64,000 bases of DNA from Escherichia coli (GCF_011045215.1 NZ_CP049201.1); one strand, 5' to 3'. Positions 4,377 to 58,447 are shown, counted from the stretch's first letter. Numbers and translations are program-made. The notes: generated by a model not told the origin, from the sequence alone.

Positions 4377-4567
4377 AACGTTAGTGGGCAGTAGTCTGCC
4401 TGATTAATTTTCTTTGAAATGATAGATATAGAGTACCACATCGCGGCTTTCTATGCGTTGTTCAATAAATTCGAACATAGGCTTCGATTTATTGCGCTAT
4501 CTCTGTGGCAGGATTGTGAATAAAGTGTCAACAAGCAACGGGGCATCGCCCATTCAAATATCTATAA

Positions 4568-37722: not shown

Positions 37723-40700
37723 ATGATTACTATTGACGGTAATGGCGCGGTTGCTTCGGTCGCATTTCGCACCAGTGAAGTTATCGCCATCTACCCTATT
37801 ACCCCCAGTTCCACGATGGCAGAACAGGCTGATGCCTGGGCCGGAAACGGCTTAAAGAACGTTTGGGGAGACACACCACGCGTGGTTGAAATGCAGTCGG
37901 AAGCGGGTGCTATCGCTACCGTGCATGGCGCTTTGCAGACGGGTGCCCTTTCAACATCGTTTACATCATCGCAGGGTTTGCTGCTGATGATCCCGACGCT
38001 GTACAAACTGGCAGGCGAACTAACACCGTTTGTCCTGCATGTAGCGGCACGTACCGTTGCCACACATGCACTCTCTATTTTTGGCGATCATTCCGACGTC
38101 ATGGCGGTGCGCCAGACGGGTTGCGCGATGTTGTGTGCGGCAAACGTCCAGGAAGCGCAAGACTTTGCTCTCATTTCGCACATCGCGACGCTGAAAAGCC
38201 GCGTGCCATTTATTCATTTCTTTGATGGTTTCCGCACGTCCCACGAAATCAATAAAATTGTCCCGCTGGCCGATGACACGATTCTTGATCTCATGCCGCA
38301 GGCCGAAATTGATGCTCATCGCGCCCGGGCGCTCAACCCGGAACATCCGGTGATCCGCGGTACGTCCGCCAATCCTGACACTTATTTCCAGTCTCGCGAA
38401 GCCACCAACCCTTGGTACAACGCGGTCTATGACCATGTTGAACAGGCGATGAATGATTTCGCTGCTGCGACAGGTCGTCAGTATCAGCCGTTTGAGTATT
38501 ACGGGCATCCGCAAGCGGAACGGGTGATTATCCTGATGGGCTCTGCCATTGGCACCTGTGAAGAAGTGGTTGATGAATTGCTAACCCGTGGCGAAAAAGT
38601 CGGCGTGCTGAAAGTTCGCCTGTACCGCCCCTTCTCCGCTAAACATTTACTGCAAGCTCTGCCGGGATCCGTACGCAGCGTGGCGGTACTGGACAGAACC
38701 AAAGAAGCCGGTGCCCAGGCAGAACCGCTCTATCTGGATGTGATGACCGCACTGGCAGAAGCCTTTAATAATGGCGAGCGTGAAACCCTGCCCCGTGTCA
38801 TTGGTGGGCGCTATGGTCTTTCATCCAAAGAATTTGGTCCGGACTGTGTACTGGCGGTATTTGCCGAGCTCAACGCGGCTAAACCGAAAGCGCGCTTTAC
38901 GGTTGGTATTTACGATGATGTGACTAATCTGTCACTGCCGTTGCCGGAAAACACCCTGCCAAACTCGGCGAAACTGGAAGCCTTGTTTTATGGCCTTGGT
39001 AGTGATGGCAGCGTTTCCGCGACCAAAAACAATATCAAGATTATCGGTAATTCCACGCCGTGGTACGCACAGGGCTATTTTGTTTACGACTCCAAAAAGG
39101 CGGGCGGCCTGACGGTTTCTCACCTTCGAGTGAGCGAACAGCCGATTCGTTCCGCTTATCTCATTTCCCAGGCTGATTTTGTTGGCTGCCACCAGTTGCA
39201 GTTTATCGATAAATATCAGATGGCTGAGCGTTTAAAACCTGGCGGCATTTTCCTGCTCAACACACCGTACAGCGCAGATGAAGTGTGGTCGCGCTTGCCG
39301 CAAGAAGTTCAGGCCGTGTTAAACCAGAAAAAAGCGCGCTTCTATGTGATTAACGCGGCGAAAATCGCCCGCGAATGTGGCCTGGCGGCCCGTATTAATA
39401 CCGTCATGCAGATGGCTTTTTTCCATCTGACGCAAATTCTGCCTGGCGATAGCGCCCTCGCAGAATTGCAGGGTGCGATTGCCAAAAGTTACAGTAGCAA
39501 AGGCCAGGATCTGGTGGAACGCAACTGGCAGGCTCTGGCGCTGGCGCGTGAATCCGTAGAAGAAGTTCCGTTGCAACCGGTAAATCCGCACAGCGCCAAT
39601 CGACCGCCAGTGGTTTCCGATGCCGCCCCTGATTTCGTGAAAACCGTAACCGCTGCGATGCTCGCCGGGCTTGGTGATGCCCTCCCCGTTTCGGCGCTGC
39701 CGCCAGACGGCACCTGGCCGATGGGCACTACGCGCTGGGAAAAACGCAATATCGCCGAAGAGATCCCCATCTGGAAAGAGGAACTCTGTACCCAATGTAA
39801 CCACTGTGTTGCCGCTTGCCCACACTCAGCTATTCGCGCAAAAGTGGTACCGCCTGAAGCGATGGAAAACGCCCCTGCCAGCCTGCATTCGCTGGATGTG
39901 AAATCGCGTGATATGCGCGGGCAGAAATATGTCTTGCAGGTGGCTCCGGAAGATTGCACCGGTTGTAACCTGTGCGTCGAAGTTTGCCCGGCGAAAGACC
40001 GTCAGAATCCAGAGATTAAAGCCATCAATATGATGTCGCGCCTGGAACATGTCGAAGAAGAGAAAATCAATTACGATTTCTTCCTCAACCTCCCAGAAAT
40101 CGACCGTAGTAAACTCGAACGTATTGATATTCGTACATCACAGCTGATTACACCGCTGTTTGAATATTCAGGTGCTTGCTCCGGTTGTGGCGAGACGCCG
40201 TATATTAAATTGCTGACTCAGCTCTATGGTGACCGGATGTTGATCGCTAACGCCACCGGCTGTTCTTCAATTTATGGCGGTAACCTGCCCTCTACACCGT
40301 ATACTACCGATGCCAACGGTCGTGGTCCGGCCTGGGCGAACTCTCTGTTTGAAGATAATGCCGAATTTGGCCTGGGTTTCCGCCTGACGGTCGATCAACA
40401 CCGTGTACGCGTGCTGCGTCTGCTGGATCAATTTGCCGATAAAATCCCGGCGGAATTACTGACTGCGTTGAAATCAGACGCCACGCCAGAGGTTCGTCGT
40501 GAACAGGTTGCAGCTTTACGCCAGCAACTCAACGATGTTGCCGAAGCACATGAACTGCTGCGTGATGCAGATGCGCTGGTAGAAAAATCAATCTGGCTGA
40601 TTGGTGGCGACGGCTGGGCTTACGATATCGGCTTTGGCGGTCTGGATCATGTATTGAGTTTGACAGAAAACGTCAACATTCTGGTGCTGGATACGCAATG

Positions 40701-41247
40701 CTATTCCAACACCGGTGGTCAGGCGTCGAAAGCGACACCGCTGGGTGCAGTAACTAAATTTGGCGAGCACGGCAAACGTAAAGCGCGTAAAGATCTTGGC
40801 GTCAGTATGATGATGTACGGTCATGTTTATGTGGCGCAGATTTCTCTCGGCGCGCAACTGAACCAGACGGTGAAAGCGATTCAGGAAGCGGAAGCGTATC
40901 CGGGACCATCGCTGATCATTGCTTATAGCCCGTGTGAAGAGCATGGTTACGATCTGGCACTCAGCCATGACCAGATGCGCCAACTCACAGCTACCGGCTT
41001 CTGGCCGCTATATCGCTTCGATCCGCGTCGTGCCGATGAAGGCAAACTGCCGCTGGCGCTGGATTCACGCCCGCCGTCAGAAGCACTGGAAGAAACGTTA
41101 CTTCACGAGCAACGTTTCCGTCGTCTGAATTCGCAGCAGCCAGAAGTGGCAGAACAGTTATGGAAAGATGCTGCAGCTGATTTGCAAAAACGCTATGACT
41201 TCCTGGCACAAATGGCCGGAAAAGCGGAAAAAAGCAACACCGATTAA
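37723..41247 (+). CDS. ydbK: Pyruvate:flavodoxin oxidoreductase (PFOR)
   Basis: 1174 aa; two 4Fe-4S ferredoxin motifs (CTQCNHCVAACP, CTGCNLCVEVCP); TPP-binding GDGWAYDIG. Confidence 0.95.
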   Translation: MITIDGNGAVASVAFRTSEVIAIYPITPSSTMAEQADAWAGNGLKNVWGDTPRVVEMQSEAGAIATVHGALQTGALSTSFTSSQGLLLMIPTLYKLAGELTPFVLHVAARTVATHALSIFGDHSDVMAVRQTGCAMLCAANVQEAQDFALISHIATLKSRVPFIHFFDGFRTSHEINKIVPLADDTILDLMPQAEIDAHRARALNPEHPVIRGTSANPDTYFQSREATNPWYNAVYDHVEQAMNDFAAATGRQYQPFEYYGHPQAERVIILMGSAIGTCEEVVDELLTRGEKVGVLKVRLYRPFSAKHLLQALPGSVRSVAVLDRTKEAGAQAEPLYLDVMTALAEAFNNGERETLPRVIGGRYGLSSKEFGPDCVLAVFAELNAAKPKARFTVGIYDDVTNLSLPLPENTLPNSAKLEALFYGLGSDGSVSATKNNIKIIGNSTPWYAQGYFVYDSKKAGGLTVSHLRVSEQPIRSAYLISQADFVGCHQLQFIDKYQMAERLKPGGIFLLNTPYSADEVWSRLPQEVQAVLNQKKARFYVINAAKIARECGLAARINTVMQMAFFHLTQILPGDSALAELQGAIAKSYSSKGQDLVERNWQALALARESVEEVPLQPVNPHSANRPPVVSDAAPDFVKTVTAAMLAGLGDALPVSALPPDGTWPMGTTRWEKRNIAEEIPIWKEELCTQCNHCVAACPHSAIRAKVVPPEAMENAPASLHSLDVKSRDMRGQKYVLQVAPEDCTGCNLCVEVCPAKDRQNPEIKAINMMSRLEHVEEEKINYDFFLNLPEIDRSKLERIDIRTSQLITPLFEYSGACSGCGETPYIKLLTQLYGDRMLIANATGCSSIYGGNLPSTPYTTDANGRGPAWANSLFEDNAEFGLGFRLTVDQHRVRVLRLLDQFADKIPAELLTALKSDATPEVRREQVAALRQQLNDVAEAHELLRDADALVEKSIWLIGGDGWAYDIGFGGLDHVLSLTENVNILVLDTQCYSNTGGQASKATPLGAVTKFGEHGKRKARKDLGVSMMMYGHVYVAQISLGAQLNQTVKAIQEAEAYPGPSLIIAYSPCEEHGYDLALSHDQMRQLTATGFWPLYRFDPRRADEGKLPLALDSRPPSEALEETLLHEQRFRRLNSQQPEVAEQLWKDAAADLQKRYDFLAQMAGKAEKSNTD

Positions 41248-41612: not shown

Positions 41613-42746
41613 ATGAAAAGCAAAGTACTGGCACTTTTAATTCCTGCCCTGCTCGCCGCAGGTGCTGCACATGCAGCCGAAGTTTATAATAAAGACGGCA
41701 ACAAATTAGATCTGTATGGCAAAGTTGATGGCCTGCATTATTTTTCTGATAATTCAGCGAAAGATGGCGACCAGAGCTATGCGCGTCTGGGTTTTAAAGG
41801 CGAAACCCAAATTAACGATCAACTTACTGGCTACGGTCAATGGGAATACAATATTCAGGCAAACAACACTGAATCTTCAAAAAACCAGTCATGGACCCGT
41901 CTGGCATTTGCCGGACTGAAATTTGCAGATTACGGTTCTTTCGATTACGGACGTAATTATGGCGTAATGTACGACATCGAAGGCTGGACCGATATGCTGC
42001 CTGAATTTGGCGGTGACTCTTATACCAATGCAGACAACTTTATGACTGGTCGTGCCAATGGCGTCGCGACTTATCGTAATACTGATTTCTTCGGTCTGGT
42101 AAATGGTCTGAACTTCGCGGTGCAGTATCAAGGTAACAACGAAGGTGCCAGTAATGGTCAGGAAGGCACCAACAACGGACGTGATGTTCGCCATGAAAAC
42201 GGTGACGGCTGGGGTCTTTCCACAACATATGATTTAGGCATGGGCTTTAGCGCTGGTGCGGCATACACCTCTTCTGACCGCACCAATGACCAGGTTAACC
42301 ATACTGCGGCGGGTGGTGATAAAGCAGACGCGTGGACTGCTGGGCTAAAATACGATGCTAACAATATTTACCTGGCAACCATGTATTCAGAAACGCGTAA
42401 TATGACCCCGTTTGGCGACAGCGATTATGCAGTTGCGAACAAAACCCAGAACTTTGAAGTCACTGCACAGTACCAGTTTGATTTTGGTCTGCGTCCGGCA
42501 GTCTCTTTCCTGATGTCTAAAGGCCGTGACCTGCACGCTGCCGGTGGTGCAGACAACCCGGCAGGTGTTGATGATAAAGATCTGGTTAAATACGCCGATG
42601 TTGGCGCGACTTACTATTTCAATAAAAACATGTCCACCTATGTTGACTATAAAATCAACCTGTTGGATGAAGATGACAGTTTCTACGCTGCCAACGGCAT
42701 CTCTACCGATGATATTGTCGCTTTAGGTCTGGTTTATCAGTTCTAA
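41613..42746 (+). CDS. ompN: Outer membrane porin OmpN
   Basis: 377 aa; signal peptide [21 protein letters not shown]; porin C-terminal YQF. Confidence 0.93.
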
Positions 42747-43496: not shown

Positions 43497-43550
43497 ATGT
43501 CGCAAAATCAAGAAATTAGCAAGAAAGAACAATACAATCTGAACAAGTAA
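43497..43550 (+). pseudogene. ttcC: ttcA 5' fragment (ttcC-like), prophage attachment-site duplication
   Basis: ATG...TAA encodes MSQNQEISKKEQYNLNK, near-identical to recalled TtcA N-terminus (MQENQQITKKEQYNLNK...), then stops. Confidence 0.7.
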
Positions 43551-43873: not shown

Positions 43874-44980
43874 TCATACTAGTCGGAGCGAAGCCCTTGA
43901 TGGTGTTCTTTTGTTATTTCCGCCACTAATTGCCGCAACTCCATAAAGCAAACTACTCAATTCATCGAGAGGTACGTTAAGCTCATTACTCAAGTGAGCC
44001 AGATAAATGCCGTCTCCAGCCAGAGCAGTCATCATTTTTTCTATAACGAGTGATCTTTCGCGCTCAATTCCCCCCGGCTCACCGGTTCGATACCCCTTTG
44101 CCGTCGCATCACGCATCAAACTATTATACTGCCATTCCGTCAGCATATTTAGATTGCGCATTCTGACAATCAGGGCCATAGCCGAAACTTTCCAGAGTGA
44201 TTTCAATTGCACAATTTTATCAAACGTCGGGACCACCATCTTAACGGCCATCACGTTTTCCTGAGGCATTAGAAATGCAGAAGCAAAAGCATCCGCTTCA
44301 CGCTCAGCATCCTGCCCTTTGACTTCCCCTTGACGATGAAGTACTAGGTGAGCCAATTCATGTGCGGCATCAAAACGGCTGCGTTCACCTGACTTGCGTG
44401 TGTTAAGAAAGATATAAGGAACATCATCTTTCCAGAACGAAAAAGCATCAATACTCGCTGTTTCCTCTGAAAGCCAGAACACCTTAACTCCAAATTTCTC
44501 AAGTAGATGAACAACATTGGTGATACTCTTCTTACCAATCCCCCAAGCCTCGCGTATCGCTTGGGCAGCGACCTCAGGCTCACTTCCACGGAGATTCGGC
44601 AATTGAGGCGAAGGAAGAGTAAAGCGAGCATTAAAATAATCGCTAAGCATAACCCCTAAAGCACCTGCACCAATTGCCGCATGCTGGTCAGCAGCTTTTG
44701 TTGTGCGTAATGAACGAAATGAAACAGTCAATGGATCAATTGTTTCAACATCATCGCCAAAGAAAAAAGCCTCTGGATAATTTAAAGCACTAGCGTATGC
44801 GCGTACCGTCTCTGCCGTGGGTGCATAAAGACAATAATCTTTTTCGTATTCAATTACGATACGACTAGATAACCCGGTTCGCCTCGCCAGTTCTGCCAAG
44901 GTCAGTTTGCGTCTGATCCGCGCTAGCTTTAGTCGAGACGGATTAAAAAGACGTTTGACATCATCAACAGTGTTACTCAT
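43874..44980 (-). CDS. XRE-type HTH + ImmA/IrrE-family zinc metallopeptidase fusion protein
   Basis: N-terminal HTH (LARIRRKLTLAELARRTGLSSRIVIEYE); HEXXH motif with downstream Glu/LMP (AAHELAHLVLH...EREADAFASAFLMP); ATGA start/stop overlap with upstream gene. Confidence 0.8.
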   Translation of the reverse strand: MSNTVDDVKRLFNPSRLKLARIRRKLTLAELARRTGLSSRIVIEYEKDYCLYAPTAETVRAYASALNYPEAFFFGDDVETIDPLTVSFRSLRTTKAADQHAAIGAGALGVMLSDYFNARFTLPSPQLPNLRGSEPEVAAQAIREAWGIGKKSITNVVHLLEKFGVKVFWLSEETASIDAFSFWKDDVPYIFLNTRKSGERSRFDAAHELAHLVLHRQGEVKGQDAEREADAFASAFLMPQENVMAVKMVVPTFDKIVQLKSLWKVSAMALIVRMRNLNMLTEWQYNSLMRDATAKGYRTGEPGGIERERSLVIEKMMTALAGDGIYLAHLSNELNVPLDELSSLLYGVAAISGGNNKRTPSRASLRLV

Positions 44981-45648
44981 TTGCTTTCAACTGAAATTGA
45001 TATGTCATCATCAAAATCCTGTTCAGGGAAAATATCCGCACCTTCAAATTGCAGAGGAGCTAAAATAATTCGCTCACTCCACGCGCTTACTCTGGCAAAT
45101 CCGTCCTGATTCACCATCCCTACCGGATACGACACCTCACAGCGAATTTCTTTATTTGCCGCATCATAATAATACAGAACGATATAAGTTCGGGTGCTAT
45201 CTATCGGCGTGATCTCAGCTTTGCCTGAATGTAAGGTATCTGCTTGGAACATATCGAATGTACCCGGATTGTTGTGAACAATCGAGCGAGTTGCCTCTCC
45301 CTTTGCATTTTTGGTTTTAGGCAATCCATCAGGACGCCCGGTATGTCCGTCACCTGAGGTAATAATCAGATTAACCCCTTTGCTTGAATTAACGACCATT
45401 TCCATGCGATTGACTACTTCAGAAGACCAGCCGTTACCCTTACCAATCAGAATACGGCGAAGCGCGGCAACCATCTCACTCCAAAAGCGGAATCCAGCAT
45501 CCACTTTAGGGTGGAGCTTACTGGATTTGCGTCGCTCGTATAAAGCAGACATTAACGCATCGCGAATATCATTTTCTGTAAAGCCCAGTTTACTAAGTAC
45601 AAAATCCGAATCAATTCCTGTATGCAGAACACAATGAGGCATATTCAT
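44977..45648 (-). CDS. Hypothetical protein, partner of the HTH-peptidase gene
   Basis: ORF with GGGAG RBS before MNMPHCVLH...; stop overlaps next start (ATGA); no family recognised by eye. Confidence 0.6.
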   Translation of the reverse strand: MNMPHCVLHTGIDSDFVLSKLGFTENDIRDALMSALYERRKSSKLHPKVDAGFRFWSEMVAALRRILIGKGNGWSSEVVNRMEMVVNSSKGVNLIITSGDGHTGRPDGLPKTKNAKGEATRSIVHNNPGTFDMFQADTLHSGKAEITPIDSTRTYIVLYYYDAANKEIRCEVSYPVGMVNQDGFARVSAWSERIILAPLQFEGADIFPEQDFDDDISISVESK

Positions 45649-45884
45649 GAAAGTTTCTCCCATCACTTTTACTTCATGATTTTATCATAAAATTTATGCA
45701 AAAATCAAGAAGTGACACCCTGCAAGCGATTGTAGACTTTCTCTTGTTTTCTTACGTTCCTGCTCTCCAATTGCGCAATTGATTTCTTCAACAATATGAG
45801 AGTACACATCATAAACCTCCGACTGCAGCCAGCAACCGGAGCCTCATTCTTCAGATACCAGAACAACTCACTGCGACCTATTCG

Positions 45885-46448
45885 TTACTCAACATTAAAT
45901 GCTCGTATCGCATCTAAATCCTCCAGACTACTCAACTCCTCCTTCATCTCCCGCTGACGCTGATAAATCTCGTCATTGCGATCGACCTGCGCCTGAACCA
46001 TTGCAGTAAGTAGCTCATCCAGTTGTTGCATTGACAACTTTACCTGCTGATTTTCCGCATCACCCCATACCATGTTTTTCCGTGCCGTGACTGATTTTGC
46101 TGATATCACCACCGGGTAAAGACGGGCCATCGAATCCGGTCCCCCGTTCCAGCTATGACCGTTCCATTCAAAAATGAATGGCTGCGCCTCCTGCTCTGTA
46201 CGCCATGCTTCAATTTCCCGGCGTTTGGCTGCTTTTGCTGCTTCCAGCATCTCTGGCGTGACGGTGAACGGCGTTATTTCTCCCCACTTGCCGCTTTGCA
46301 GTTCCTGCCAGACTCGCTGCCCTGTCTCTGCTGTATCCGTGGCAGTTGCCGTATACGGAACCGGTTCATCCATGCCATCAAACAACACCCCGCAGTCAAT
46401 CGCGCCATTTTCAAGATAACGCGCATTTTCGATGCGTTTTATTTCCAT
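45885..46448 (-). CDS. Putative tail fibre assembly/chaperone protein (second module)
   Basis: Immediately downstream of second fibre gene with short overlap; size typical of Tfa; start placed at MEIKRIEN; weak sequence support. Confidence 0.5.
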   Translation of the reverse strand: MEIKRIENARYLENGAIDCGVLFDGMDEPVPYTATATDTAETGQRVWQELQSGKWGEITPFTVTPEMLEAAKAAKRREIEAWRTEQEAQPFIFEWNGHSWNGGPDSMARLYPVVISAKSVTARKNMVWGDAENQQVKLSMQQLDELLTAMVQAQVDRNDEIYQRQREMKEELSSLEDLDAIRAFNVE

Positions 46449-46455
46449 AAAACAC

Positions 46456-47880
46456 CTACGCAATACGTATGAACAAACCAATCATGACACTGGCTGACCC
46501 GGCAGACCCGAGTTCATCGCCTGACAGTGCACGATATGACCCCGGCATACCACCACCAGAACCCCGCACATATACGGAAACGCTGCCGTTATATCCAACC
46601 CCGCTACCGGTCGTGCCGTGACACATAAATTCAACCGCGCTCAGACGTGACCCCGGATAGCTGTACCCGCGTTTTATCCGGCGGTCGGTGTCTGCGTCTC
46701 CCTCACCGTTACAGGCCGCCAGTACAAGACTGCCTGTACCGTACCAGCCGTCCGTGGTACCGGGAGCAATACCGGACAGAAGAGAGATAATGTCCTGTGA
46801 GGTCATCTTCAGATTTTCCCAGCCAGTCAGATAACCATTACCTGTTGTCCAGTAGCGGCTGTAATAAACATCGCCATTAATACCGTAGAAAATAATGGCC
46901 TTTGCTGTATATCGCGGCTCCGGTGGATTATTGCGTGCCTCAACCCACCGGATTCTGACCACCCCGTTAAACAACACACCTCCGGATATGATTTTACTGC
47001 CACCCTCAACAAAATATTCACCCGGCGTCGCATTCCTTACCCATGCCAGAAAATCATCCTCTGTGTTAAAACGGATACGCTCTGCGGGCAAAAAAATATG
47101 CCCAAAACCAAATGCGCCAGGTGTCGCCAGACGACCTTCAGTCCGGTCACGAATGTCGCTCTGTGGCATCATTGTGGCAGCGCTTTTCAGTCCAAGATTA
47201 TCACGGGATTCCTGCTGAGCCTCTTCACCTTCATCAGCCAGCTCTGACAGGCGATTCGCCGTTTTCAGTGTCGCAGATAACGCAGTATCAATATCTGCTC
47301 TGGCCTGCTCTGCACCGGATGCGGCCTGTTTAGCAGCTTCAGCGTCCTTTTTTACCTCTGCGGCGGCATTCTCAACCTGCGAGGCCAGATTTTCGGCCTG
47401 TTGTTTACCCTCCGCAACAGCGTCGGCGTTCTGCTGAACACCTTCCGCCAGTTTTTTTACCTCTTCTTTTGCCCGGGCGGCAGCATCTGCATGTTGCCCT
47501 GCCTGTCGTTCGCTTTCTGTTGCGGTTTCGGCACCCTGCTGCGCCTGCGCCACCATTTCCTCAAATCGTTTCACCACGTCGGGTTTGAGGTCGCCTTCAT
47601 CCAGGGCAGTCAGAAAATCGTTCAGCGTGCCGGGCTTTGAGTCGTCGTATACAGCAATATCGCCAACACAGTACTCGTCGCGCCAGCCCTGTTTCAGATA
47701 TACGCAATATTTTCCGGTCTGCGCCTCAAAACAGTACTCGCCACAGTTTCCTGTCACCACGTCGGCAACTGTGCGCATCACCACCTCTGAGGTGTTTACC
47801 CGGGATTTCAGAATAATGTGGCATCCGGACATGGAGATACCTGCGCCATCAATCAGCGCACCTGATATCACTACAGACAT
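46456..47880 (-). CDS. Tail fibre protein 2 with lambda Stf-like N-terminal domain and divergent C-terminal domain
   Basis: N-terminus MSVVISGALIDGAG...VYDDSKPGTLNDFL resembles recalled side-tail-fibre N-terminal domain; Ala/Glu/Lys-rich coiled coil; Gly-rich C-terminus. Confidence 0.65.
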   Translation of the reverse strand: MSVVISGALIDGAGISMSGCHIILKSRVNTSEVVMRTVADVVTGNCGEYCFEAQTGKYCVYLKQGWRDEYCVGDIAVYDDSKPGTLNDFLTALDEGDLKPDVVKRFEEMVAQAQQGAETATESERQAGQHADAAARAKEEVKKLAEGVQQNADAVAEGKQQAENLASQVENAAAEVKKDAEAAKQAASGAEQARADIDTALSATLKTANRLSELADEGEEAQQESRDNLGLKSAATMMPQSDIRDRTEGRLATPGAFGFGHIFLPAERIRFNTEDDFLAWVRNATPGEYFVEGGSKIISGGVLFNGVVRIRWVEARNNPPEPRYTAKAIIFYGINGDVYYSRYWTTGNGYLTGWENLKMTSQDIISLLSGIAPGTTDGWYGTGSLVLAACNGEGDADTDRRIKRGYSYPGSRLSAVEFMCHGTTGSGVGYNGSVSVYVRGSGGGMPGSYRALSGDELGSAGSASVMIGLFIRIA

Positions 47881-47903
47881 AGTTTTTCTCGCGATAAATT
47901 AAA

Positions 47904-48449
47904 TCAGGAAGAGGCTTCCGGAGAGACGGGCCATTCAATGGCGTTATATGAGGCTTTATCAGTGACGGTGCTGAAATCCATCGCCTGCAGCGATTTCGCG
48001 TAAATGCGGTACGCTTTCAGCTTTTCCCTGTCTTCGTCGCTGATTAATCCCAGCAGCAGGTCTTTTTCCCATTCGCTGGTCATGATGCTGGCCTGTTGTA
48101 ACAGGGCATCGCGTTCATCTTCTGCTTTAAGTTTGTAGTCGAAAACAAATTCATCATTGCGGTAAAACCAGTAACCAGGCACGGTAATACGGCGATTAGC
48201 GGTAATATCAGGAACTTCAATAACACTGGCGTTACGGGGTTCAATACCTGTCACATCCTTACCGACCCACACCACGCGTCCGTCTCCGGTGTAAACCATT
48301 TTTATGGTGTCACTGGCAAAGTTCTTCTGTTCTTCATACCAGTTTTTGCCGTCTTCCGAAAAAAGCCAGGTGACATCATACTGTTTTGTCAGCTGATATT
48401 GTTCCGCGGTTTTCGGATTACCCGCAGTAATATTTTTTAAATGCAACAT
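47904..48449 (-). CDS. Tail fibre assembly protein (Tfa/gpG-like)
   Basis: 181 aa; C-terminal region (KLKAYRIYAKSL...IEWPVSP) resembles recalled Tfa proteins; directly follows fibre gene. Confidence 0.7.
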   Translation of the reverse strand: MLHLKNITAGNPKTAEQYQLTKQYDVTWLFSEDGKNWYEEQKNFASDTIKMVYTGDGRVVWVGKDVTGIEPRNASVIEVPDITANRRITVPGYWFYRNDEFVFDYKLKAEDERDALLQQASIMTSEWEKDLLLGLISDEDREKLKAYRIYAKSLQAMDFSTVTDKASYNAIEWPVSPEASS

Positions 48450-48451
48450 TG

Positions 48452-50005
48452 TTAAACACTCGCCACGTTATACCAGGTGCCGTTAATCAGTTTCTGAAGC
48501 GGTCGGTAATACACGCCGCCGATGTTATCTGCTGAATTTTTTCCGGTATCCTGCACATTAATACCGGATAATCCGTGGCCTGAAGGTGAGCGAAATGTCC
48601 AGGATTTTTCGTTACCTCCCGGGTTATAAAACATTTCGGAGCCATAACGCACATCCTGCACGCCGCCATTTCGCTGCTGGTAACGGGCATCGAAATTTCC
48701 ATAGTTTGATGGAACCATCTGTCCGTTTACAGCGAATGTGATACTGCCATCGGTATTTCTCTGGCTGTAGAAATGCCAGCCGGAATCATCACCAAGCTCT
48801 GCAACTACAGGTCGGGATGAATTACCCCATAAATTAAACGTTGCATTTTTCGTGGAGTTGTTGGCGCTGGATAACGTGAATTTTTTAGCATTTCCGGCCT
48901 GAATATTTTTTAACGCTATCGCCACACCATTCTGGAAACGAAATACATGCTGTCCATTCGCATAAACATCCAGAATGCCGTCGCCGTTTTGTTTTATACC
49001 TGTATCGTTATCCCCGAAAGCAATTGAGTTTCCGCCCAGCGCGTTCTGAACGCCGATACCCAGCGCACCATTGACCTGCGAACCACCGCCAACAGACACT
49101 TTATGCGACATGGATATTTCACCAGTCCGCAGATTAATAGTGAACGGGCGAAGTGGACCAATATCGCCATTCTCGCCCTGACCTTCACTGGTAGGGATAA
49201 GGTGCAGGCACTCTTCCGAACGACGAAAAATAAGGCCAAAAGCGTCGTTGAAAATCCTCAGCGCATTAACACCACGGATTTTCAGCTCCCCGGTCATCAA
49301 ATCACCAGATTTTTTTACATATCGCAGATCAAAATCTGAATAGATATTGCTGGGGTTTATCACGCTGAAATAGCTTTTCTCGCTATCAAGAAGGCAAATC
49401 AAAGGAATACCCTTAATGATATCATTCGCTACCAGCTCGGACTTGTTCCCCTTATAAAGTGGGAACGTACCAAGAACCTTTCCGCCTAGTGTTAGTTGAA
49501 GTGTCGCCGCGTTGGTATTGTTCTGAACGGGGAAGACGATAATCGGGGTTCGTAGCGTCCAATCTGTACCCTCATTAACAAAAAACGTCGAGGGAAGTTC
49601 CAGCGCCAGTGTGTTTGCAGTGCCACCAGCAACACCCGCAATATAATGACCGCTCTGAAGCTGCGCTATCTGTACGAAATAGTTTTCCGATCCACGCGTG
49701 GCAAAGTTAGCCACTACGTCATTAAGGGACCAACCTTTCGCGGTTGTTCCTTCCTGCCCACGAATGACTTTCAGCACGTCACCGTTTACCGATACCAGGT
49801 GACAAATCTCAAATGCAGACTCTTTATTATCGGTAAGCGTAATTTTTGCATAGACGCGTTGCCCGTTCGATTTATTTTCAAAATCGGCAGAAAGCAATTT
49901 TGCAAATTTAGCTCCCGTGCCCGGCATCACCGGAATATCAGTCTGAATCGTCGTAATATCACCAGCCAGTGCTGAAACAACGTTATTGCCGAATCCAAGA
50001 ATCAT
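48452..50005 (-). CDS. Tail fibre protein 1 (P2 gpH / Mu S / Stf-type C-terminal module)
   Basis: 517 aa; segment VNALRIFNDAFGLIFRRSEECLHLIPTSEGQGENGDIGPLRPFTINLRTGEISMSH matches a module I recall from P2 H-type fibres. Confidence 0.8.
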   Translation of the reverse strand: MILGFGNNVVSALAGDITTIQTDIPVMPGTGAKFAKLLSADFENKSNGQRVYAKITLTDNKESAFEICHLVSVNGDVLKVIRGQEGTTAKGWSLNDVVANFATRGSENYFVQIAQLQSGHYIAGVAGGTANTLALELPSTFFVNEGTDWTLRTPIIVFPVQNNTNAATLQLTLGGKVLGTFPLYKGNKSELVANDIIKGIPLICLLDSEKSYFSVINPSNIYSDFDLRYVKKSGDLMTGELKIRGVNALRIFNDAFGLIFRRSEECLHLIPTSEGQGENGDIGPLRPFTINLRTGEISMSHKVSVGGGSQVNGALGIGVQNALGGNSIAFGDNDTGIKQNGDGILDVYANGQHVFRFQNGVAIALKNIQAGNAKKFTLSSANNSTKNATFNLWGNSSRPVVAELGDDSGWHFYSQRNTDGSITFAVNGQMVPSNYGNFDARYQQRNGGVQDVRYGSEMFYNPGGNEKSWTFRSPSGHGLSGINVQDTGKNSADNIGGVYYRPLQKLINGTWYNVASV

Positions 50006-50628
50006 TTTTGAATCACCGTTGTTGCATAGGAATAAATAAAAGGGAGTTTTACATATTTCTGGTCAATGGCATCTTTCAGAAAATAGCCTATACCATCACC
50101 ATATTCTGGTATCTGAATAGAAAAAACACTGTCCGATACAGTCACGCTCACATCAAAAGTGTGCTGCAACGGCGGGTCTATTCCGTTTTTTCCATGAATA
50201 AAGCGCGCCACACGGCGCTTTAACCAGTCAATGCAGAAATGCGAACCGTCAGCCTTGTAAAAATTCCACGTTAATATTCGTTTGAAATAATCATCCGGAA
50301 CATACGATGCCTGCCCCGGAACATAATTCCGCATTGCCGCATAAGGGATTGTATTGTATTCAATGGTATCGTATGCGCCGCGTGCAATAGCCTCCTCGGA
50401 AACCTGTAGTAAAGGCCTTTCAACGCCATAAATCCCGAGAGCAATCCAGTCCAGCAATTGCCCGGTTATTGATTCCGATGTCCAGCATGGCAATGCCAGA
50501 TTGTTGAGTGAATCGAGGTATTCCTGAGCAATTTCATTGTATGCATCAAAGAACGCAACAACATTCGGATCATCTCTGTACTGCACAAACGGATAAGCAG
50601 GGAGAATTTTTTCAGTCAGATATTGCAT
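50002..50628 (-). CDS. Baseplate protein (gpI-like, by position)
   Basis: Lies between J-like gene and fibre; start placed at MQYLTEKILP to limit overlap. Confidence 0.5.
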   Translation of the reverse strand: MQYLTEKILPAYPFVQYRDDPNVVAFFDAYNEIAQEYLDSLNNLALPCWTSESITGQLLDWIALGIYGVERPLLQVSEEAIARGAYDTIEYNTIPYAAMRNYVPGQASYVPDDYFKRILTWNFYKADGSHFCIDWLKRRVARFIHGKNGIDPPLQHTFDVSVTVSDSVFSIQIPEYGDGIGYFLKDAIDQKYVKLPFIYSYATTVIQK

Positions 50629-51838
50629 ACTTGTTAACTTGAACCTGTGATGCCACCGTCGAAAAATAGGAATAGGTATCGCCATAAACCAGGCTTGTGT
50701 CTTTTGCCGGAGGAACAATATGGCCATTAATGCCAATGCTCACACTGATTGTTGAGATCAACGTCGCATCAACCAACAATCTGACGGAACTGGTAAAAAT
50801 ATCCTGGATTCGCAGCAGATTTATCGGGTGTCCGACTTCAATAGAATTGATGTAATCAGCAACGTTTTGCTGCACAGCCATAGCAATACCCGCCGGATCA
50901 ACATAATCATCAGATACAGTGTTCCAGGTGATTAGCACCATGACGTTTTGTGATGACGGGATAACGAACGGCACCTGATAAACATCTGGCGAAACGGTTA
51001 TTGAAACCGTGCGTTTTTCCACTGCCGCACCAGATGGATTGCTAACATCGTTGGTCAGTTTCGAAATATCCGGTACAGATTTGTAAATAGCATAAGCCAC
51101 ATCATACGGATCACCGCCACCAACAACCGCAACCCATTTCCCCAGCGACGACTGCCGGAAAGAAATCAGGTTTTCTCGCACACCGCTTACTGATTTGAGC
51201 ATCGCTTTAAAGCAATCCGGTGTTCCCTGCACACCAAACATGCCGGACTCCATGACTTCGGCGCGGTAAGATGCCCACGTTTGCGCCTCCTGACCTGGCA
51301 TCCCTGCGGTAAGGTTCGTGCATTTTACAGGCTGATCTTTGGGTACCGATGTAATGACCTGCGTTACGGTTCCTTCCGGTACAGCCCATGAGCCTGACGT
51401 TGTGGCCACACAGTAGACTGGCTCAGTCTGCCCGCTTTCCGGCACCACCGTATCGCGGGAAACTGCATACTGGTAGTTGCCGTCACCGACAACAAATCCT
51501 TTAGGGATACCAAACCCCGGCAACGCCTCAAACACCACGTATACCGCCGTATTTGTACTTAATCCCTTCTGTGCTCCATAAATGTTTCCGAGTTGCATCA
51601 ATAACGGAATATTTGCGCCGTATGGGCTTACGGAGTTAATAAGGTCCACCCGCGCCTGGTCTATTAATGCCAGCGCCCCGACTGCCGTGCTGGCAAGGTC
51701 AGTAATAAGCCCCGCCGGAAGGTTGGCTGTATATCCAGGTACTTTTTCAGCAACTCTGATGATAAGATCTGCAAGCAAATCATTGGGTGGCGTAGGCTGC
51801 GCCCCCGCACTGGTCATAGTAATTGGTATTTCTGACAT
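50612..51838 (-). CDS. Baseplate wedge protein (gpJ/gp47-like, by position and size)
   Basis: 408 aa; GGAG RBS; order W - J - I - fibre typical of contractile-tail baseplate clusters. Confidence 0.55.
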   Translation of the reverse strand: MSEIPITMTSAGAQPTPPNDLLADLIIRVAEKVPGYTANLPAGLITDLASTAVGALALIDQARVDLINSVSPYGANIPLLMQLGNIYGAQKGLSTNTAVYVVFEALPGFGIPKGFVVGDGNYQYAVSRDTVVPESGQTEPVYCVATTSGSWAVPEGTVTQVITSVPKDQPVKCTNLTAGMPGQEAQTWASYRAEVMESGMFGVQGTPDCFKAMLKSVSGVRENLISFRQSSLGKWVAVVGGGDPYDVAYAIYKSVPDISKLTNDVSNPSGAAVEKRTVSITVSPDVYQVPFVIPSSQNVMVLITWNTVSDDYVDPAGIAMAVQQNVADYINSIEVGHPINLLRIQDIFTSSVRLLVDATLISTISVSIGINGHIVPPAKDTSLVYGDTYSYFSTVASQVQVNKYAISD

Positions 51839-51878: not shown

Positions 51879-53054
51879 TTATTCAACCTCTTCTAAACTG
51901 CTCACTCTGGACCCTCGGCGGAAATTATCATCATTTTTAACATACTCGTATGAATCCAGAATCAAACCAGATATGCGAAGTATATCTTCCGGATTAGTTA
52001 TATGTATCCTTTTACCATCCGTATCAAGTCGAGCTCGTCTTATTTCATTCAACTGAACTTCACTAAGCGAAATAGGTAAAGTTATAAATGAAGATTTTTT
52101 ATCATAAAATCTTAACAGCCATCTATTTGTTTTACCATTCAATAGTACACCGAAATATGACTCAGTATCTTTATATTCTATATTATCTTCTGTTTGTATG
52201 ATTTGTTTTACCCTTTCAAATAGCTCCAATTCTTTGGCTGTGGTTATTATGTTGGGGTTTTCTTCATCAACAATGGCGTTATTAACTTGTGTATCCGTTG
52301 CATCATTTTCTTTAGTTTGCTCTACCGGTTGTGTAGATAGCCCGGAAACCACCATTGCGCTAACAGCGCGCTCAACGGCCTGTTTAACTAATGGAGTCAC
52401 GAACTCAAGAAATCTCTGATTAAGTTGTCTCTCAATATTTGAACGACTAGCAACATATCGAACAAACTCCAGATCAACTTCACGAAGACTAGAACTGATT
52501 GTTTTAGTAAATGAATTCAAATAAACACTTTCTTCAGCCAGTGTCCGTAAAGCCTCTGGTTTGAATTTATCATAACGAAAACGAAATAATTGTGTAATAT
52601 CGGAGTGAGTTAGAGAATCCATTCTTAATTTTAAAAACGGCGTTGAATCCATTATGTTTTTTTGTTTCAAATCCGTAAAAAAACGCCATTCAACACCATT
52701 TGTAATGGCTGATATAGTAACTTCCGGTGTTGAATTAAAATATCTTGATAGCTGTGGGCAGTGATTATCAATTTGTTCTGAAAACGATTTCGCCTCAATG
52801 AACATCACAGGAACATCATGACAAAATAAAGCGTAATCAACCCGTTCATTAGCCTTAACCCCGGGGAAGTCAGCACTATACTCAGCTTTGACTTTTCTTG
52901 GATCATACGGAGTAAAACCAAGAATATCTAGTAATGGCATAATGAGTGCTTGTTTTGTCGTTTCTTCAGTTGTACAAAACACCCCCATTTTTGCAACATG
53001 CTCTGTGTGTATTTTTAACTTATTTGCAAAATTTTCCATGCTTGTCTCCTCCAT
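51879..53054 (-). CDS. Orphan HsdR-N-like PD-(D/E)xK nuclease-domain protein (AT-rich moron; candidate defence gene)
   Basis: N-terminal motifs ETTKQALIMPLLDILGF / RVDYALF / VMFIEAKS / QLSRYF / AITNGVEWRFF as in type I R-subunit N-domains; C-terminal ~270 aa unassigned; AT-rich; likely start at second ATG (53039) after GGAGGAG. Confidence 0.7.
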   Translation of the reverse strand: MEETSMENFANKLKIHTEHVAKMGVFCTTEETTKQALIMPLLDILGFTPYDPRKVKAEYSADFPGVKANERVDYALFCHDVPVMFIEAKSFSEQIDNHCPQLSRYFNSTPEVTISAITNGVEWRFFTDLKQKNIMDSTPFLKLRMDSLTHSDITQLFRFRYDKFKPEALRTLAEESVYLNSFTKTISSSLREVDLEFVRYVASRSNIERQLNQRFLEFVTPLVKQAVERAVSAMVVSGLSTQPVEQTKENDATDTQVNNAIVDEENPNIITTAKELELFERVKQIIQTEDNIEYKDTESYFGVLLNGKTNRWLLRFYDKKSSFITLPISLSEVQLNEIRRARLDTDGKRIHITNPEDILRISGLILDSYEYVKNDDNFRRGSRVSSLEEVE

Positions 53055-56473: not shown

Positions 56474-58447
56474 TTACCCCGGTATTTGTTGCGTTCCGGC
56501 GAGTTGTGCCAGTATGTCGGAACCCGGCGATTGTCGCACCTGAAGCTCAATTATTGCGCGGGCATTTTTGCCAGCACCCTGAAGGTTATCTCTGGCATTT
56601 CTTAGCTGATTCATAATACCAGGGTGTTGATCCAAAGCTCCCTGTATCTGAGGCAATAATTTAATTAAATATTTTACAGTCTCCATTCTCAAACTTAGAT
56701 TTCCATCTCTATCAATACGACCTCCGTTATATGCCGTAAGCATTTTTGCCACATCGCCTTTATAACGCCGGTTCAGATCATTTAAAAAGCGGCCAGCCGC
56801 AAGAGTGGATTTATTTGGGTCATAAACATCATCACCCACCAGACCATACTGTTTTGCGGTGCTATCCCAGAATTGCCACAACCCCTTAGCGAATCTACCT
56901 TTTTCATCTGGAGTTCCTCTTGCCAGAGGATTCCACGAAGATTCAACCTCCGCGATAGCTGACATCATATTTTTAGGAAGTCGATAAGTATTATTGGCTT
57001 GCTCTACAAAGTTCTGAATATTTCTCTTTAAATCATTAGGCATACGGTAATTTTTATATACATCATCCTGTTTATAAAACTCACCCGTATACTGATTTGT
57101 CATCGGGTTTGCTCCCGGCAACGCACCACCGAGATATTTATTCCCAAATGCCGCAAGAACTGGATCTGCCTGTTCAGCACCAACTCCGGTTCCGGGGAGA
57201 TATTTATCTTCCCCACCGATCCATTTGATAGCTGACCATATTGCTTTTGCAATCCGGCTCACCGCCAGAGAAAAATCGTCAAGATCATTTTTAAATTGTT
57301 CGCTATTCAGCCACTTACCAAGTTTCTCCAGCCCTTCGCCAGCCTCAGTGAGAATTTTCTGAAAATTTCCACCATTCAGAAAACCTTCAATATTGGATGT
57401 CAGCCCATCAGATGCACCTGTGATTAGTGGGTTATATCTGGCGAGAGCTGCATACCAGGAATTTGATATTCTGTTTCCATTTACCATCAGGTTACTCACC
57501 GTATCCTGATAACCTGACTGCATAGCTGGCGTGAGGTAAGCACCGAGCAACCTGGTATTTGATGCAAATTTCTCGTTCAGTTGGGGGATCTTGTCCAGAT
57601 TCGCTTCCACCTGGTTAGTTGTCGCGACATCAACAAATCCAAGCCCTTGTCCGTTGAGAATCCCCTGAGTAAGTCCTGAACCTTTATATTGCTTAACGAG
57701 AGATGCAAGCGCGCTCATAAGTTTGGGCAGATTCTTTGCTGCACCATCTCGAGGATCAATTCCAAGACTGACCAGACCAGCATAGTTTGGATCATTCGGA
57801 TTTTTCTGTGCGTTCGCCAGATGCTGAACCAGTTCTTCTGTGCCAGAAAAATATGGCGAATAGGTGGCACGTGCGGCCTGCATCTGTGCGGTTTCCATAC
57901 CCAGCCCCTGAGCCACGCTGTATTGCGCTGCAACCTTGCTCGCCATATATCCGTACCCGAAAGCACCGACCGAACCAAGCGCCGCAATTTTGCTCCCCCA
58001 GGATACAGTCGTTTTAAACAGCGTTTTCAGTCGTGAATTGGTCGTTTTAAGCGTTGAATTGATCTGCTTGTAAGTTTTCAGCGTCCCCTGAGCGTTTTTA
58101 CCCAGACTACTGAGATACTTATCAAACATCGTTTCGCCGCGACCTTTATAGTTGCTCACCAGCGAATCAGGTGTTTTTCCGCTACCGACAAAGCTCCCTT
58201 TTTCATCCCTTAAACGTCCATCGGTGGGCGCAGGTGAAGATGGTTTCCTGGGAGCCTGATTGGCTTCTCCGCCCGAGGTTGCCTGCTGCGTGCCACCTCC
58301 TAGACCTGTATTTGAAGGTATTTTAAGCGGCGTCCCCGCAGGGCCAATCATCAGCCCATTGCGATACTTTTCAAATATCGCCTCAAGTCGCTTAAGGTGT
58401 TCTTCATTAACGTCCAGTGTCAGAACTGGCATCTGATTACCTGACAT
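56474..58447 (-). CDS. Tail tape measure protein with lytic transglycosylase-like domain
   Basis: 657 aa, Gly/Ala-rich; SLT-like motif AIAEVESSWNPLA...GLWQFWDSTA; follows frameshift chaperone. Confidence 0.75.
   Translation of the reverse strand: MSGNQMPVLTLDVNEEHLKRLEAIFEKYRNGLMIGPAGTPLKIPSNTGLGGGTQQATSGGEANQAPRKPSSPAPTDGRLRDEKGSFVGSGKTPDSLVSNYKGRGETMFDKYLSSLGKNAQGTLKTYKQINSTLKTTNSRLKTLFKTTVSWGSKIAALGSVGAFGYGYMASKVAAQYSVAQGLGMETAQMQAARATYSPYFSGTEELVQHLANAQKNPNDPNYAGLVSLGIDPRDGAAKNLPKLMSALASLVKQYKGSGLTQGILNGQGLGFVDVATTNQVEANLDKIPQLNEKFASNTRLLGAYLTPAMQSGYQDTVSNLMVNGNRISNSWYAALARYNPLITGASDGLTSNIEGFLNGGNFQKILTEAGEGLEKLGKWLNSEQFKNDLDDFSLAVSRIAKAIWSAIKWIGGEDKYLPGTGVGAEQADPVLAAFGNKYLGGALPGANPMTNQYTGEFYKQDDVYKNYRMPNDLKRNIQNFVEQANNTYRLPKNMMSAIAEVESSWNPLARGTPDEKGRFAKGLWQFWDSTAKQYGLVGDDVYDPNKSTLAAGRFLNDLNRRYKGDVAKMLTAYNGGRIDRDGNLSLRMETVKYLIKLLPQIQGALDQHPGIMNQLRNARDNLQGAGKNARAIIELQVRQSPGSDILAQLAGTQQIPG

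Follow-up and report, generated by a model that had tools for sequence, protein, structure and literature searches.

Two same-strand tail fibre and chaperone pairs in an Escherichia coli prophage resemble a block annotated in phiP27 and Rac-SA53

Introduction

The four-gene block described here is also found in phiP27 (L54-L57), Rac-SA53 (tail1-4), vB_Apl-pPE4 (gp67-gp70) and P2/HP1-like prophages. It combines two fibres with a Caudo_TAP protein and a DUF4376 protein. In phage Mu the Tfa protein remains on the fibre tip. In Ur-lambda, the gpV/gpM junction is encircled by twelve Stf N-domains, which bear four fibres, each a trimer (PMC12617516). In the Vibrio myophage XM1, six trimers of the collar spike gp40 bind the neck through an N-terminal domain homologous to that of the second fibre of our locus (PMC10457771). 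In phage V22, whose gp26/gp27 pair is the only one of this type where it has been demonstrated by experiment, the DUF4376 protein gp27 is needed for a functional, host-binding receptor-binding protein (RBP) (PMC7289586) and has been proposed to be a transient cap (PMC10579305). We analyzed one such block in a 64-kb stretch of E. coli DNA, called the window below.

Results

The fibre block and its setting

Four minus-strand ORFs occupy positions 45885-50005 of the window, coding for fibre 1, Tfa, fibre 2 and a DUF4376 protein. The features of the region are as follows.

43510-43535, no strand assigned: prophage attachment-site (att) core, adjoining uspF and marking the prophage end
45817-45841, minus strand: terminator-like hairpin
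45885-46448, minus strand: DUF4376 protein, 187 aa from ATG (Pfam); presumed chaperone or cap for the fibre 2 tip
46456-47880, minus strand: fibre 2, 474 aa (ORF; stop codon 46456-46458)
46459-47196, minus strand: fibre 2 C-terminal tip module, aa 229-474; a linker motif, then two small beta-rich globular domains (predicted)
47197-47595, minus strand: fibre 2 coiled-coil shaft, aa 96-228, from composition and periodicity
47482-47880, minus strand: fibre 2 collar/adaptor domain of the lambda Stf type, aa 1-133 (PF08400)
47904-48449, minus strand: Tfa tail fibre assembly protein, 181 aa (Caudo_TAP); chaperone for fibre 1
48452-50005, minus strand: fibre 1, 517 aa (ORF; PHROG and PDB matches)
48455-48754, minus strand: fibre 1 Mu S-like tip, aa 418-517 (PDB matches)
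48455-49318, minus strand: fibre 1 shaft plus tip, aa 230-517, the portable part
49319-50005, minus strand: fibre 1 N-terminal ~229 aa, lineage-specific baseplate adaptor
50002-50628, minus strand: 208-aa protein (phrog_8212), upstream baseplate gene of the same operon
50612-51838, minus strand: baseplate J/gp47-like wedge protein, upstream in the same operon as the fibre block

In the ORF map the start of fibre 1 overlaps the upstream 208-aa gene by 4 nt, the Tfa gene starts 3 nt past the fibre 1 stop codon, a spacer of 23 nt free of junction debris separates Tfa from fibre 2, and a 7-nt gap precedes the DUF4376 gene. All four proteins have exact matches in NCBI. The first-pass annotation had read this stretch as two complete fibre/chaperone pairs on one strand, and the four ORFs bear it out.

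Upstream of the block are genes for tail sheath, hub and baseplate J, so the prophage is a myovirus with a contractile tail. The order Baseplate_J, ~210-aa protein, fibre, Tfa, fibre, DUF4376 is also seen in L004-L007. The block is bordered by baseplate genes and by RmrT/RmrA, a cargo that sits between the DUF4376 gene and att. The att core is a 26-nt match, with one mismatch, to the annotated attB of Rac-SA53 (L008 306-331). About 45 nt past the DUF4376 stop codon, a hairpin with a 10-bp stem including 6 GC pairs is suggestive of the end of the late tail operon; it can be called no more than suggestive because its T-tract is weak and terminator-like sites in the region are no commoner than chance predicts (11 against 9.9 expected). 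A promoter scan of the region gave nothing above chance level.

Fibre 1 and its chaperone

The C-terminus of fibre 1 (about aa 418-517) matches the tail fibre S of phage Mu (PDB 5YVQ, E 1.2e-14, aa 419-516), and the C-terminus also matches the short tail fibre of phiTE (PDB 9CUY, E 1.1e-15). The PDB sequence search further returned the T4 gp34 repeats (E ~1e-11). Residues 1-254 correspond to phrog_25419, a family of unknown function, and the remainder to phrog_6859/454, annotated as tail fiber. The P2 H-type adaptor PF12571 was not detected in the fibre 1 N-terminus, which has no Pfam match, while fibre 1 relatives from P2-like prophages do carry it. Over aa 230-517 fibre 1 is 61% identical to phiP27 L54 and 70% identical to the fibre of the P2-like prophage L004; the N-terminus differs.

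Immediately downstream of fibre 1, Tfa contains the Caudo_TAP domain (Pfam PF02413, E 1.4e-24, aa 40-178) and belongs to phrog_136 (E 1.7e-60). It is 77-93% identical to phiP27 L55, pPE4 gp68 and the GmM062 homologue, and 90% identical to the L004 Tfa. The Mu S-type tip and Tfa-type chaperone that had been assigned to this fibre thus agree with the database matches.

Fibre 2 and the DUF4376 protein

Fibre 2 begins with the Pfam domain phage_tail_N (PF08400, E 2.4e-59, aa 1-133). Its N-domain matches the collar domain of Ur-lambda Stf (PDB 9E7M/9MGH, E 1.5e-15, aa 1-93), and aa 1-207 match XM1 gp40 (PDB 7KJK, E 2.3e-6), with the fibre 2 shaft aligned to the coiled-coil part of gp40. The shaft (aa 96-228) is 24% Ala, 14% Glu and 10.5% Gln and has no Tyr or Trp. 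Its hydrophobic period peaks at 3.5 residues, >10x the next peak when LIVMFA are counted and ~4x when LIVMF are counted. An Stf-like N-domain followed by a coiled coil, as the first-pass annotation had it, is what these matches describe, and the coiled coil is presumably trimeric.

The C-terminal module (aa 229-474) is 15.9% Gly, 5.3% Tyr and 2.0% Trp and opens with a conserved linker motif, LGLKSAAT...DRTEGRL..PGAFGFG. It had been called unrecognised and unlike the usual receptor-binding modules. The first description holds for Pfam, which matched 0 of 44 family members, and for the PDB sequence search, which returned no match for the tip; it fails against PHROGs, where the tip is PHROG 2636 (E 3.7e-61). 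The family has 239 database matches, with 126 representatives at 50% identity, and the tip occurs fused to two adaptor N-termini, PF08400 and PF12571. The predicted structure, a monomer model although fibre 2 is almost certainly a trimer, consists of two small beta-rich knobs whose structural neighbours are solely distal domains of phage receptor-binding proteins and fibres. The second description is not borne out: the two adaptor contexts and the predicted fold come near the match to a common fibre tip domain that the annotation itself had named as speaking against it. As judged from sequence, the fibre 2 tip is a recurrent enterobacterial tail-fibre tip and no oddity. It is not accompanied by a Caudo_TAP Tfa, as the T4 gp37-like tip of lambda Stf is; the gene downstream codes for DUF4376.

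The first-pass annotation had also left room for some other activity in fibre 2. The C-terminal module could be a depolymerase or esterase, act in superinfection exclusion, or be a cleaved intramolecular chaperone, but we consider this unlikely. No catalytic domain, enzyme-like fold or beta-helix was found in the module or its model, and its best structural neighbours are those of RBPs and fibres. The module is always at the extreme C-terminus behind differing adaptors and has a separate chaperone gene, as is typical of receptor-binding tips. Its distal knob diverges more than any other part, which is what contact with a receptor would lead one to expect.

The DUF4376 gene lies downstream of the same tip family in every context inspected (GmM062, phiP27, pPE4, Rac-SA53 and P2-like prophages). 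An AGGTG precedes its ATG, the RefSeq-style start; an alternative TTG start at 46481 gives the 198-aa ORF of the first-pass annotation (45885-46481). Pfam DUF4376 (PF14301) was found at aa 81-188 of the 198-aa ORF (E 8.5e-16), together with phrog_1141 (E 1e-86). Like V22 gp27, the protein has a C-terminal PF14301 domain and is encoded directly behind a short knob-type fibre, and by analogy it is presumed to be a chaperone or cap for the fibre 2 tip. Across lineages DUF4376 is 71-73% identical versus only 31-40% for the fibre 2 tip, which fits a conserved chaperone with a diversifying receptor-binding surface.

Distribution of the block

In a megablast search of 5426 complete E. coli genomes, 396 matched the block in whole or in part. 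The full double cassette is present in three baseplate lineages. In the P2-like relatives the adaptor of fibre 2 is PF12571, with just 36% identity to the fibre 1 adaptor; the mounting site of fibre 2 is therefore lineage-dependent.

This distribution bears on whether fibre 2 and DUF4376 are a remnant of an earlier lambdoid, Rac-like prophage at the same site and are not part of the myovirus virion. Lambdoid side tail fibres, lambda Stf among them, have PF08400 as their N-domain, and the prophage occupies the Rac/uspF attachment site. The pair is nevertheless inside the prophage, between fibre 1/Tfa on one side and the cargo and att on the other, with the clean 23-nt spacer noted above. The identical four-gene order is found in free-phage records integrated elsewhere (phiP27 and pPE4), and P2-like prophages keep it with a swapped adaptor. 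The fibre 2 ORF is also intact, with its 474-aa homologues forming a 368-member cluster. A remnant is thus very unlikely.

Search for switching elements

The window was searched by tblastn with a Gin-type serine invertase query, and the best match had an E-value of 1.3. Between 43.3 and 51 kb only two short imperfect inverted repeats were found, neither of which flanks a cassette. The only direct repeats were 20-31 nt long and at chance level, diversity-generating repeats were not found, and no unassigned ORF near the block is of reverse transcriptase size. These results uphold the statement that no gin/pin-like invertase is present, and they add the inverted-repeat search that had been proposed with it.

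A host-range switch like the G segment of Mu, the C segment of P1 or the P segment of e14/Rac, expressing one tip at a time and captured in one orientation or frozen by invertase loss, is extremely improbable: the Mu S-type tip with Tfa in fibre 1, a chromosomal site at which K-12 Rac carries stfR-tfaR-pinR, and the association of the PF08400 fibres of e14 and Rac with Pin invertases count for it, but it is already largely refuted by the lack of an invertase and of flanking inverted repeats, by two fibre/chaperone sets on the same strand and not opposed as in invertible fibre-switch segments, by a fibre 2 that is a complete protein, having a start codon, a ribosome-binding site and an N-terminal adaptor of its own, and not an alternative C-terminal exon, and by the same invertase-less order in the complete phage genomes of phiP27, pPE4 and Rac-SA53.

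Discussion

The locus probably encodes two independent, complete fibres, each with its own chaperone, that are co-transcribed and constitutive at the end of a late tail operon of the Rac-SA53/phiP27 type. The lineage-specific N-terminus of fibre 1 would plug into the baseplate of this phage, and its Mu S-type distal tip would be folded by the Caudo_TAP protein. The collar domain of fibre 2 would ring a six-fold tail or neck component, and its trimeric coiled coil of ~130 residues would carry the two-domain knob tip. This tip may bind a receptor, with the DUF4376 protein maturing or capping it. We infer co-assembly of both fibres on one virion, and likewise an attachment site for fibre 2 and receptors. 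Simultaneous expression, which had been suggested at the outset, remains the best reading of a window in which no switching elements were found. If both pairs are transcribed together and constitutively present without a switch, the virion would therefore carry two receptor-binding specificities, which would give broader or two-step adsorption. With two adaptors the fibres are probably mounted at two different sites. The block of fibre 1 tip, Tfa, fibre 2 and DUF4376 appears to travel together among phages whose baseplates are unrelated, with the N-terminal adaptors alone being exchanged.

A more specific and tentative proposal is that fibre 2 is mounted through a collar ring of the lambda Stf/XM1 gp40 type, at the neck or another six-fold ring and not at the baseplate. 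Receptor-binding fibres would then stand at two levels of the particle, and the two-knob tip with DUF4376 might be a portable receptor-binding cassette of enterobacteria that is re-targeted to different phage chassis by swapping PF08400 and PF12571 adaptors. If so, it would be a ready-made module for host-range engineering. Since the sheath and baseplate proteins of the prophage showed no sequence similarity to PDB chains, those of XM1 included, the neck is a location that we only infer.

Similar to fibre 2, XM1 gp40 belongs to a contractile-tail phage, has a homologous N-terminal Ig-like domain and coiled coil, and coexists with separate baseplate fibres (gp18), as fibre 2 would with fibre 1. 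Unlike fibre 2, gp40 has 839 aa, and it is anchored on gp4 and gp5 of the neck. Ur-lambda Stf likewise has a homologous collar, behind which come a flexible linker and a trimeric coiled coil, and lambda Stf is an accessory fibre expressed beside another receptor-binding device (gpJ). Lambda is however a siphovirus with the collar on an exposed tube/tip junction, whereas the prophage tail has a sheath. Lambda Stf ends in a T4 gp37-like tip that uses a Caudo_TAP Tfa, while fibre 2 has a predicted two-knob tip and a DUF4376 partner.

In the Alteromonas phages V22 (gp26/gp27) and A5 (gp8/gp9), a short knob-domain fibre is also followed immediately by a DUF4376 protein, and knobs are duplicated within that fibre family as in the fibre 2 family. 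What links the block to these phages of marine hosts is the Pfam family of the chaperone. Like Mu S/U and P2 H/G, fibre 1 and its partner combine a tip homologous to Mu S with a Caudo_TAP chaperone like Mu U and P2 G. Mu flips S/U against S'/U' by Gin inversion, whereas the second pair here has a full-length fibre of its own in direct orientation, another chaperone class and no invertase.

The arrangement is real but ordinary, because annotated examples already exist in relatives, phiP27 and Rac-SA53 among them. Like pPE4, these two close their tail operon with a fibre, Caudo_TAP, a PF08400 fibre and DUF4376, ordered and oriented as here. Identity of relatives to the window proteins is 77-93% for Tfa, 72-89% for DUF4376 and 61-85% for fibre 1. 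Fibre 2 is 95% identical to that of GmM062, 55% identical to phiP27 L56 over the whole protein and 71% identical to its pPE4 counterpart over the N-terminus (aa 1-215), but the tips of the phiP27, Rac-SA53 and pPE4 group are only ~32% identical to the tip here. The pPE4 and Rac-SA53 versions of fibre 2 are longer, at 667 aa and 1061 aa respectively, and the window differs from these relatives in its extra RmrT/RmrA cargo between DUF4376 and att. phiP27 differs in its Mu-like baseplate and another fibre 1 N-terminus, while Rac-SA53 shares with the prophage the same uspF-adjacent att site and the same baseplate genes.

Results

Organization of the tail-fibre block

The region at 45885-50005 is an ordinary, previously annotated dual tail-fibre module of a prophage of the Rac-SA53/phiP27 type. 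The first-pass annotation had described two fibre/chaperone pairs in tandem on one strand; the finding is real and that anatomy accurate, with all four genes present in the ORF map. Each of the proteins has an identical NCBI entry under the expected name, and NCBIfam gave no meaningful match for any of the four.

48452-50005, minus strand: fibre 1 (517 aa; ORF call)
47904-48449, minus strand: Caudo_TAP/Tfa protein (181 aa; PF02413, E 1.4e-24)
46456-47880, minus strand: fibre 2 (474 aa; ORF call)
45885-46448, minus strand: DUF4376 protein (187 aa; PF14301, E 8.5e-16)
45817-45841: terminator-like hairpin just past the last gene, suggestive only, as such sites occur at chance frequency in the region

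Both fibres are complete, and they differ in their N-terminal adaptors and in the class of chaperone encoded after each. The genes share one orientation and are closely spaced where the tail operon ends. Of 5426 complete E. coli genomes, 396 had a megablast match to at least part of the block.

Prophage setting

The ORF map and relatives place the prophage from about 43.5 kb to the window end, with its structural genes on the minus strand. Upstream of the block are genes for a tail sheath (phrog_205), a baseplate hub (phrog_196) and a baseplate J/gp47-like protein, so the phage has a contractile tail.

37723-41247, plus strand: nifJ/ydbK, chromosomal flank
41613-42746, plus strand: ompN, chromosomal flank
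adjoining the prophage end, plus strand: uspF, chromosomal flank
43510-43535: prophage att core (26 nt), one mismatch to the annotated attB of Escherichia phage Rac-SA53, adjoining uspF
within 43874-45666, minus strand: RmrT (229 aa; PADLOC E 1.3e-59)
within 43874-45666, minus strand: RmrA (368 aa, HTH and ImmA/IrrE-type peptidase; E 5.6e-143)
51879-53054, minus strand: endonuclease-like gene (391 aa; phrog_4225), inside the baseplate gene cluster
56474-58447, minus strand: tail protein (657 aa; phrog_7694), lytic transglycosylase-like domain at about residues 473-606

The att core lies at the chromosomal position that the right end of Rac occupies in E. coli K-12. RmrT and RmrA, which match the Rosmer anti-phage defence system, are encoded between the DUF4376 gene and the att site; relatives carry other cargo or none there. 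The endonuclease-like gene has a GC content of 35.7% compared to about 47-50% in its flanks, and a strong promoter-like site (53097-53068, 10/12 matches) is directly upstream of it. A RefSeq homologue of its product is named 'type I restriction endonuclease'. In phages pPE4 and Rac-SA53, by contrast, unrelated opposite-strand genes fill the slot, including an anti-repressor, and accessory genes (morons) appear to insert preferentially at this position. The Rac-SA53 homologue of the 657-aa tail protein is annotated as a lytic transglycosylase, and the gene sits where a tape-measure or tail lysin gene is expected.

Fibre 1 and its chaperone

Fibre 1 had been assigned a C-terminal module of the P2 H/Mu S/Stf type and a Tfa-like chaperone. 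Both assignments held, the second through the PF02413 match and the first through the last ~100 residues, which align with tail fibre S of Mu (PDB 5YVQ, E 1.2e-14) and with the phiTE short tail fibre (9CUY, E 1.1e-15). In the PDB search residues 383-435 also matched the T4 gp34 repeats. Fibre 1 has no significant Pfam match, and its residues 1-254 fall in a separate PHROG, with function unassigned there. The 90%-identity cluster with fibre 1 also holds many 208-aa proteins, the product of the upstream baseplate gene. As that gene and the fibre 1 gene overlap by 4 nt, the co-clustering is probably an artefact of fused or mis-called ORFs. A DUF2612 label for the 208-aa protein came from a clustered homologue and was dropped when Pfam on the window protein did not confirm it.

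The fibre 2 tip is a recurrent module

PF08400 ('prophage tail fibre N-terminal') spans residues 1-133 of fibre 2 (E 2.4e-59). Among PDB structures, fibre 2 aligns with the collar domain of Ur-lambda Stf (9E7M, E 1.5e-15) and, at lower significance, with gp40, the collar spike of Vibrio myophage XM1 (7KJK, E 2.3e-6). The lambda Stf-like N-domain noted earlier is thus confirmed. So is the coiled coil, indicated at residues 96-228 by a composition rich in Ala, Glu and Gln and a dominant hydrophobic period of 3.5 residues. Literature searches on PF08400 and under PDB code 8JOV found nothing relevant, and the SfIV paper has nothing on dual fibres.

The remaining residues, 229-474 (the tip), were described as an unusual Gly/Tyr/Trp-rich region. 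The composition stands (Gly 15.9%, Tyr 5.3%, Trp 2.0%), as does the lack of a match to PDB sequences, profile search included, or to Pfam, where 44 family members were searched as well as the window protein. The tip is not, however, unusual. In PHROGs it corresponds to the C-terminal half of family 2636, annotated 'tail fiber protein' (E 3.7e-61). A word-indexed search of 5.8 billion proteins found it 239 times, almost always in E. coli, Shigella, Salmonella, Citrobacter or Plesiomonas; with a full profile, 126 clusters were retrieved from 1.84 billion representatives. It is a genuine, recurrent tail-fibre tip without a Pfam family, neither rare nor odd.

In the full-coverage matches checked, the module runs to the very end of the protein. 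The N-terminal adaptor to which it is joined is either PF08400 (lambda Stf type) or the unrelated PF12571 (P2 H type). A confident AlphaFold2 model built on a 44-sequence alignment from the profile search of 1.84 billion proteins (pLDDT 90, pTM 0.71) has a helix and, after it, two small beta-rich globular domains, or knobs. It superseded a model from only 13 close homologues (pLDDT 63.6), for which Foldseek was uninformative. In longer relatives the first knob and a coiled-coil stretch are tandemly repeated two to three times ahead of the final copy. Such repeats were noted among the relatives P0121-P0132, with a period of about 270 aa in P0121; another long relative is Rac-SA53 tail3 (1061 aa, 1208-4393 of its record). 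Members of this family thus differ in length through module duplication, and the 474-aa fibre 2 is the minimal form.

It had been suggested that fibre 2 carries a different activity. We consider it unlikely that the tip has an enzymatic function or any other besides binding: the predicted structure of two small beta-rich domains, its structural neighbours and Pfam searches of the 44 members offered no positive evidence for one.

DUF4376 accompanies the tip

A DUF4376 gene follows the tip family in every context examined: the window, E. coli GmM062, phiP27 (L57), pPE4 (gp70), Rac-SA53 (tail4) and three P2/HP1-like prophage loci (L004, L005, L007). In the window its start is likely ATG 46448, preceded by AGGTG, rather than TTG 46481. 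In Alteromonas myophage V22, host binding by the fibre gp26 has been shown experimentally to need the DUF4376 protein gp27, which is absent from the final complex (PMC7289586). A later study proposed DUF4376 proteins as transient caps too and described knob duplication in their cognate fibres (PMC10579305). Across lineages the DUF4376 proteins are 71-73% identical and the tips only 31-40%, the distal knob being the most divergent part. By sequence, this is the pattern expected of a conserved chaperone serving a diversifying receptor-binding surface. One PHROG, phrog_11571, matches both the N-terminal half of Tfa (aa 26-111) and the DUF4376 C-terminal part of the second chaperone (aa 62-197), implying that hybrids with a Tfa-type N-terminus and a DUF4376 C-terminus may exist.

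Discussion

Both fibres would be made together and assembled on one virion. Fibre 1 would attach to the baseplate by its lineage-specific N-terminus, its Mu S-like tip folded by Tfa, with fibre 2 anchored by its collar domain. In Ur-lambda the junction of tube and tip is encircled by 12 copies of that domain, to which four trimeric side fibres are attached; these fibres accelerate adsorption (PMC12617516). The homologous domain of gp40 fastens six trimers of that protein to the neck in myophage XM1 (PMC10457771). On a sheathed tail, the likely site for fibre 2 would be the neck or some other exposed ring with six-fold symmetry. The 208-aa protein, baseplate J and sheath had no match in the PDB, hence no sequence link to the XM1 tail proteins. 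The pair would provide two receptor specificities, or a two-step adsorption, reversible and then irreversible.

Fibre 2 and DUF4376 could instead be the remnant of a second, lambdoid prophage, but this is quite improbable given that the pair lies inside the prophage behind a spacer of only 23 nt and that the same order is found in complete phage genomes. An invertible switch of the Mu/P1/e14 type deserves almost no credence: as first noted, there is no invertase (tblastn with a Gin-type invertase found nothing in the whole 64-kb window), no inverted repeats flank the block, both cassettes face one way and fibre 2 is a complete protein. A diversity-generating retroelement at the block was likewise rejected, with no suggestive direct repeats.

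The main value of the finding is for annotation and engineering; no new mechanism is revealed. Mildly new are the structural description of a Pfam-less tip family, its strict linkage to DUF4376, and what we infer to be the use of a Stf-type collar fibre by contractile-tail phages. Because the tip recurs with its DUF4376 partner and the block moves intact with adaptor exchange, the module could help in predicting or re-programming the host range of temperate phages of E. coli, Shigella and Salmonella, and a Pfam-level family for the tip suggests itself.

The order fibre, Caudo_TAP, second fibre, DUF4376, on one strand and without an invertase, is shared by phiP27, Rac-SA53, pPE4 and P2/HP1-like prophages. 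The pPE4 record (PP818812.1), labelled Actinobacillus pleuropneumoniae phage vB_Apl-pPE4, has about 90% DNA identity to the prophage across the fibre region and baseplate genes in common with it; its Actinobacillus host label looks doubtful. While Rac-SA53 and pPE4 also share the baseplate of the window, phiP27 has a different, Mu-like one. The first fibre of the P2/HP1-like prophages combines PF12571 with PF03406, and the paralogous PF12571 adaptor of the second is only 36% identical to that of the first. Between the window and one such locus (L004), Tfa is 90% and the distal 288 residues of fibre 1 are 70% identical, whereas the fibre 1 N-termini are unrelated. With the order retained as well, these comparisons show that the double cassette travels as a unit, swapping nothing but its adaptors, among at least three tail lineages of myoviruses.
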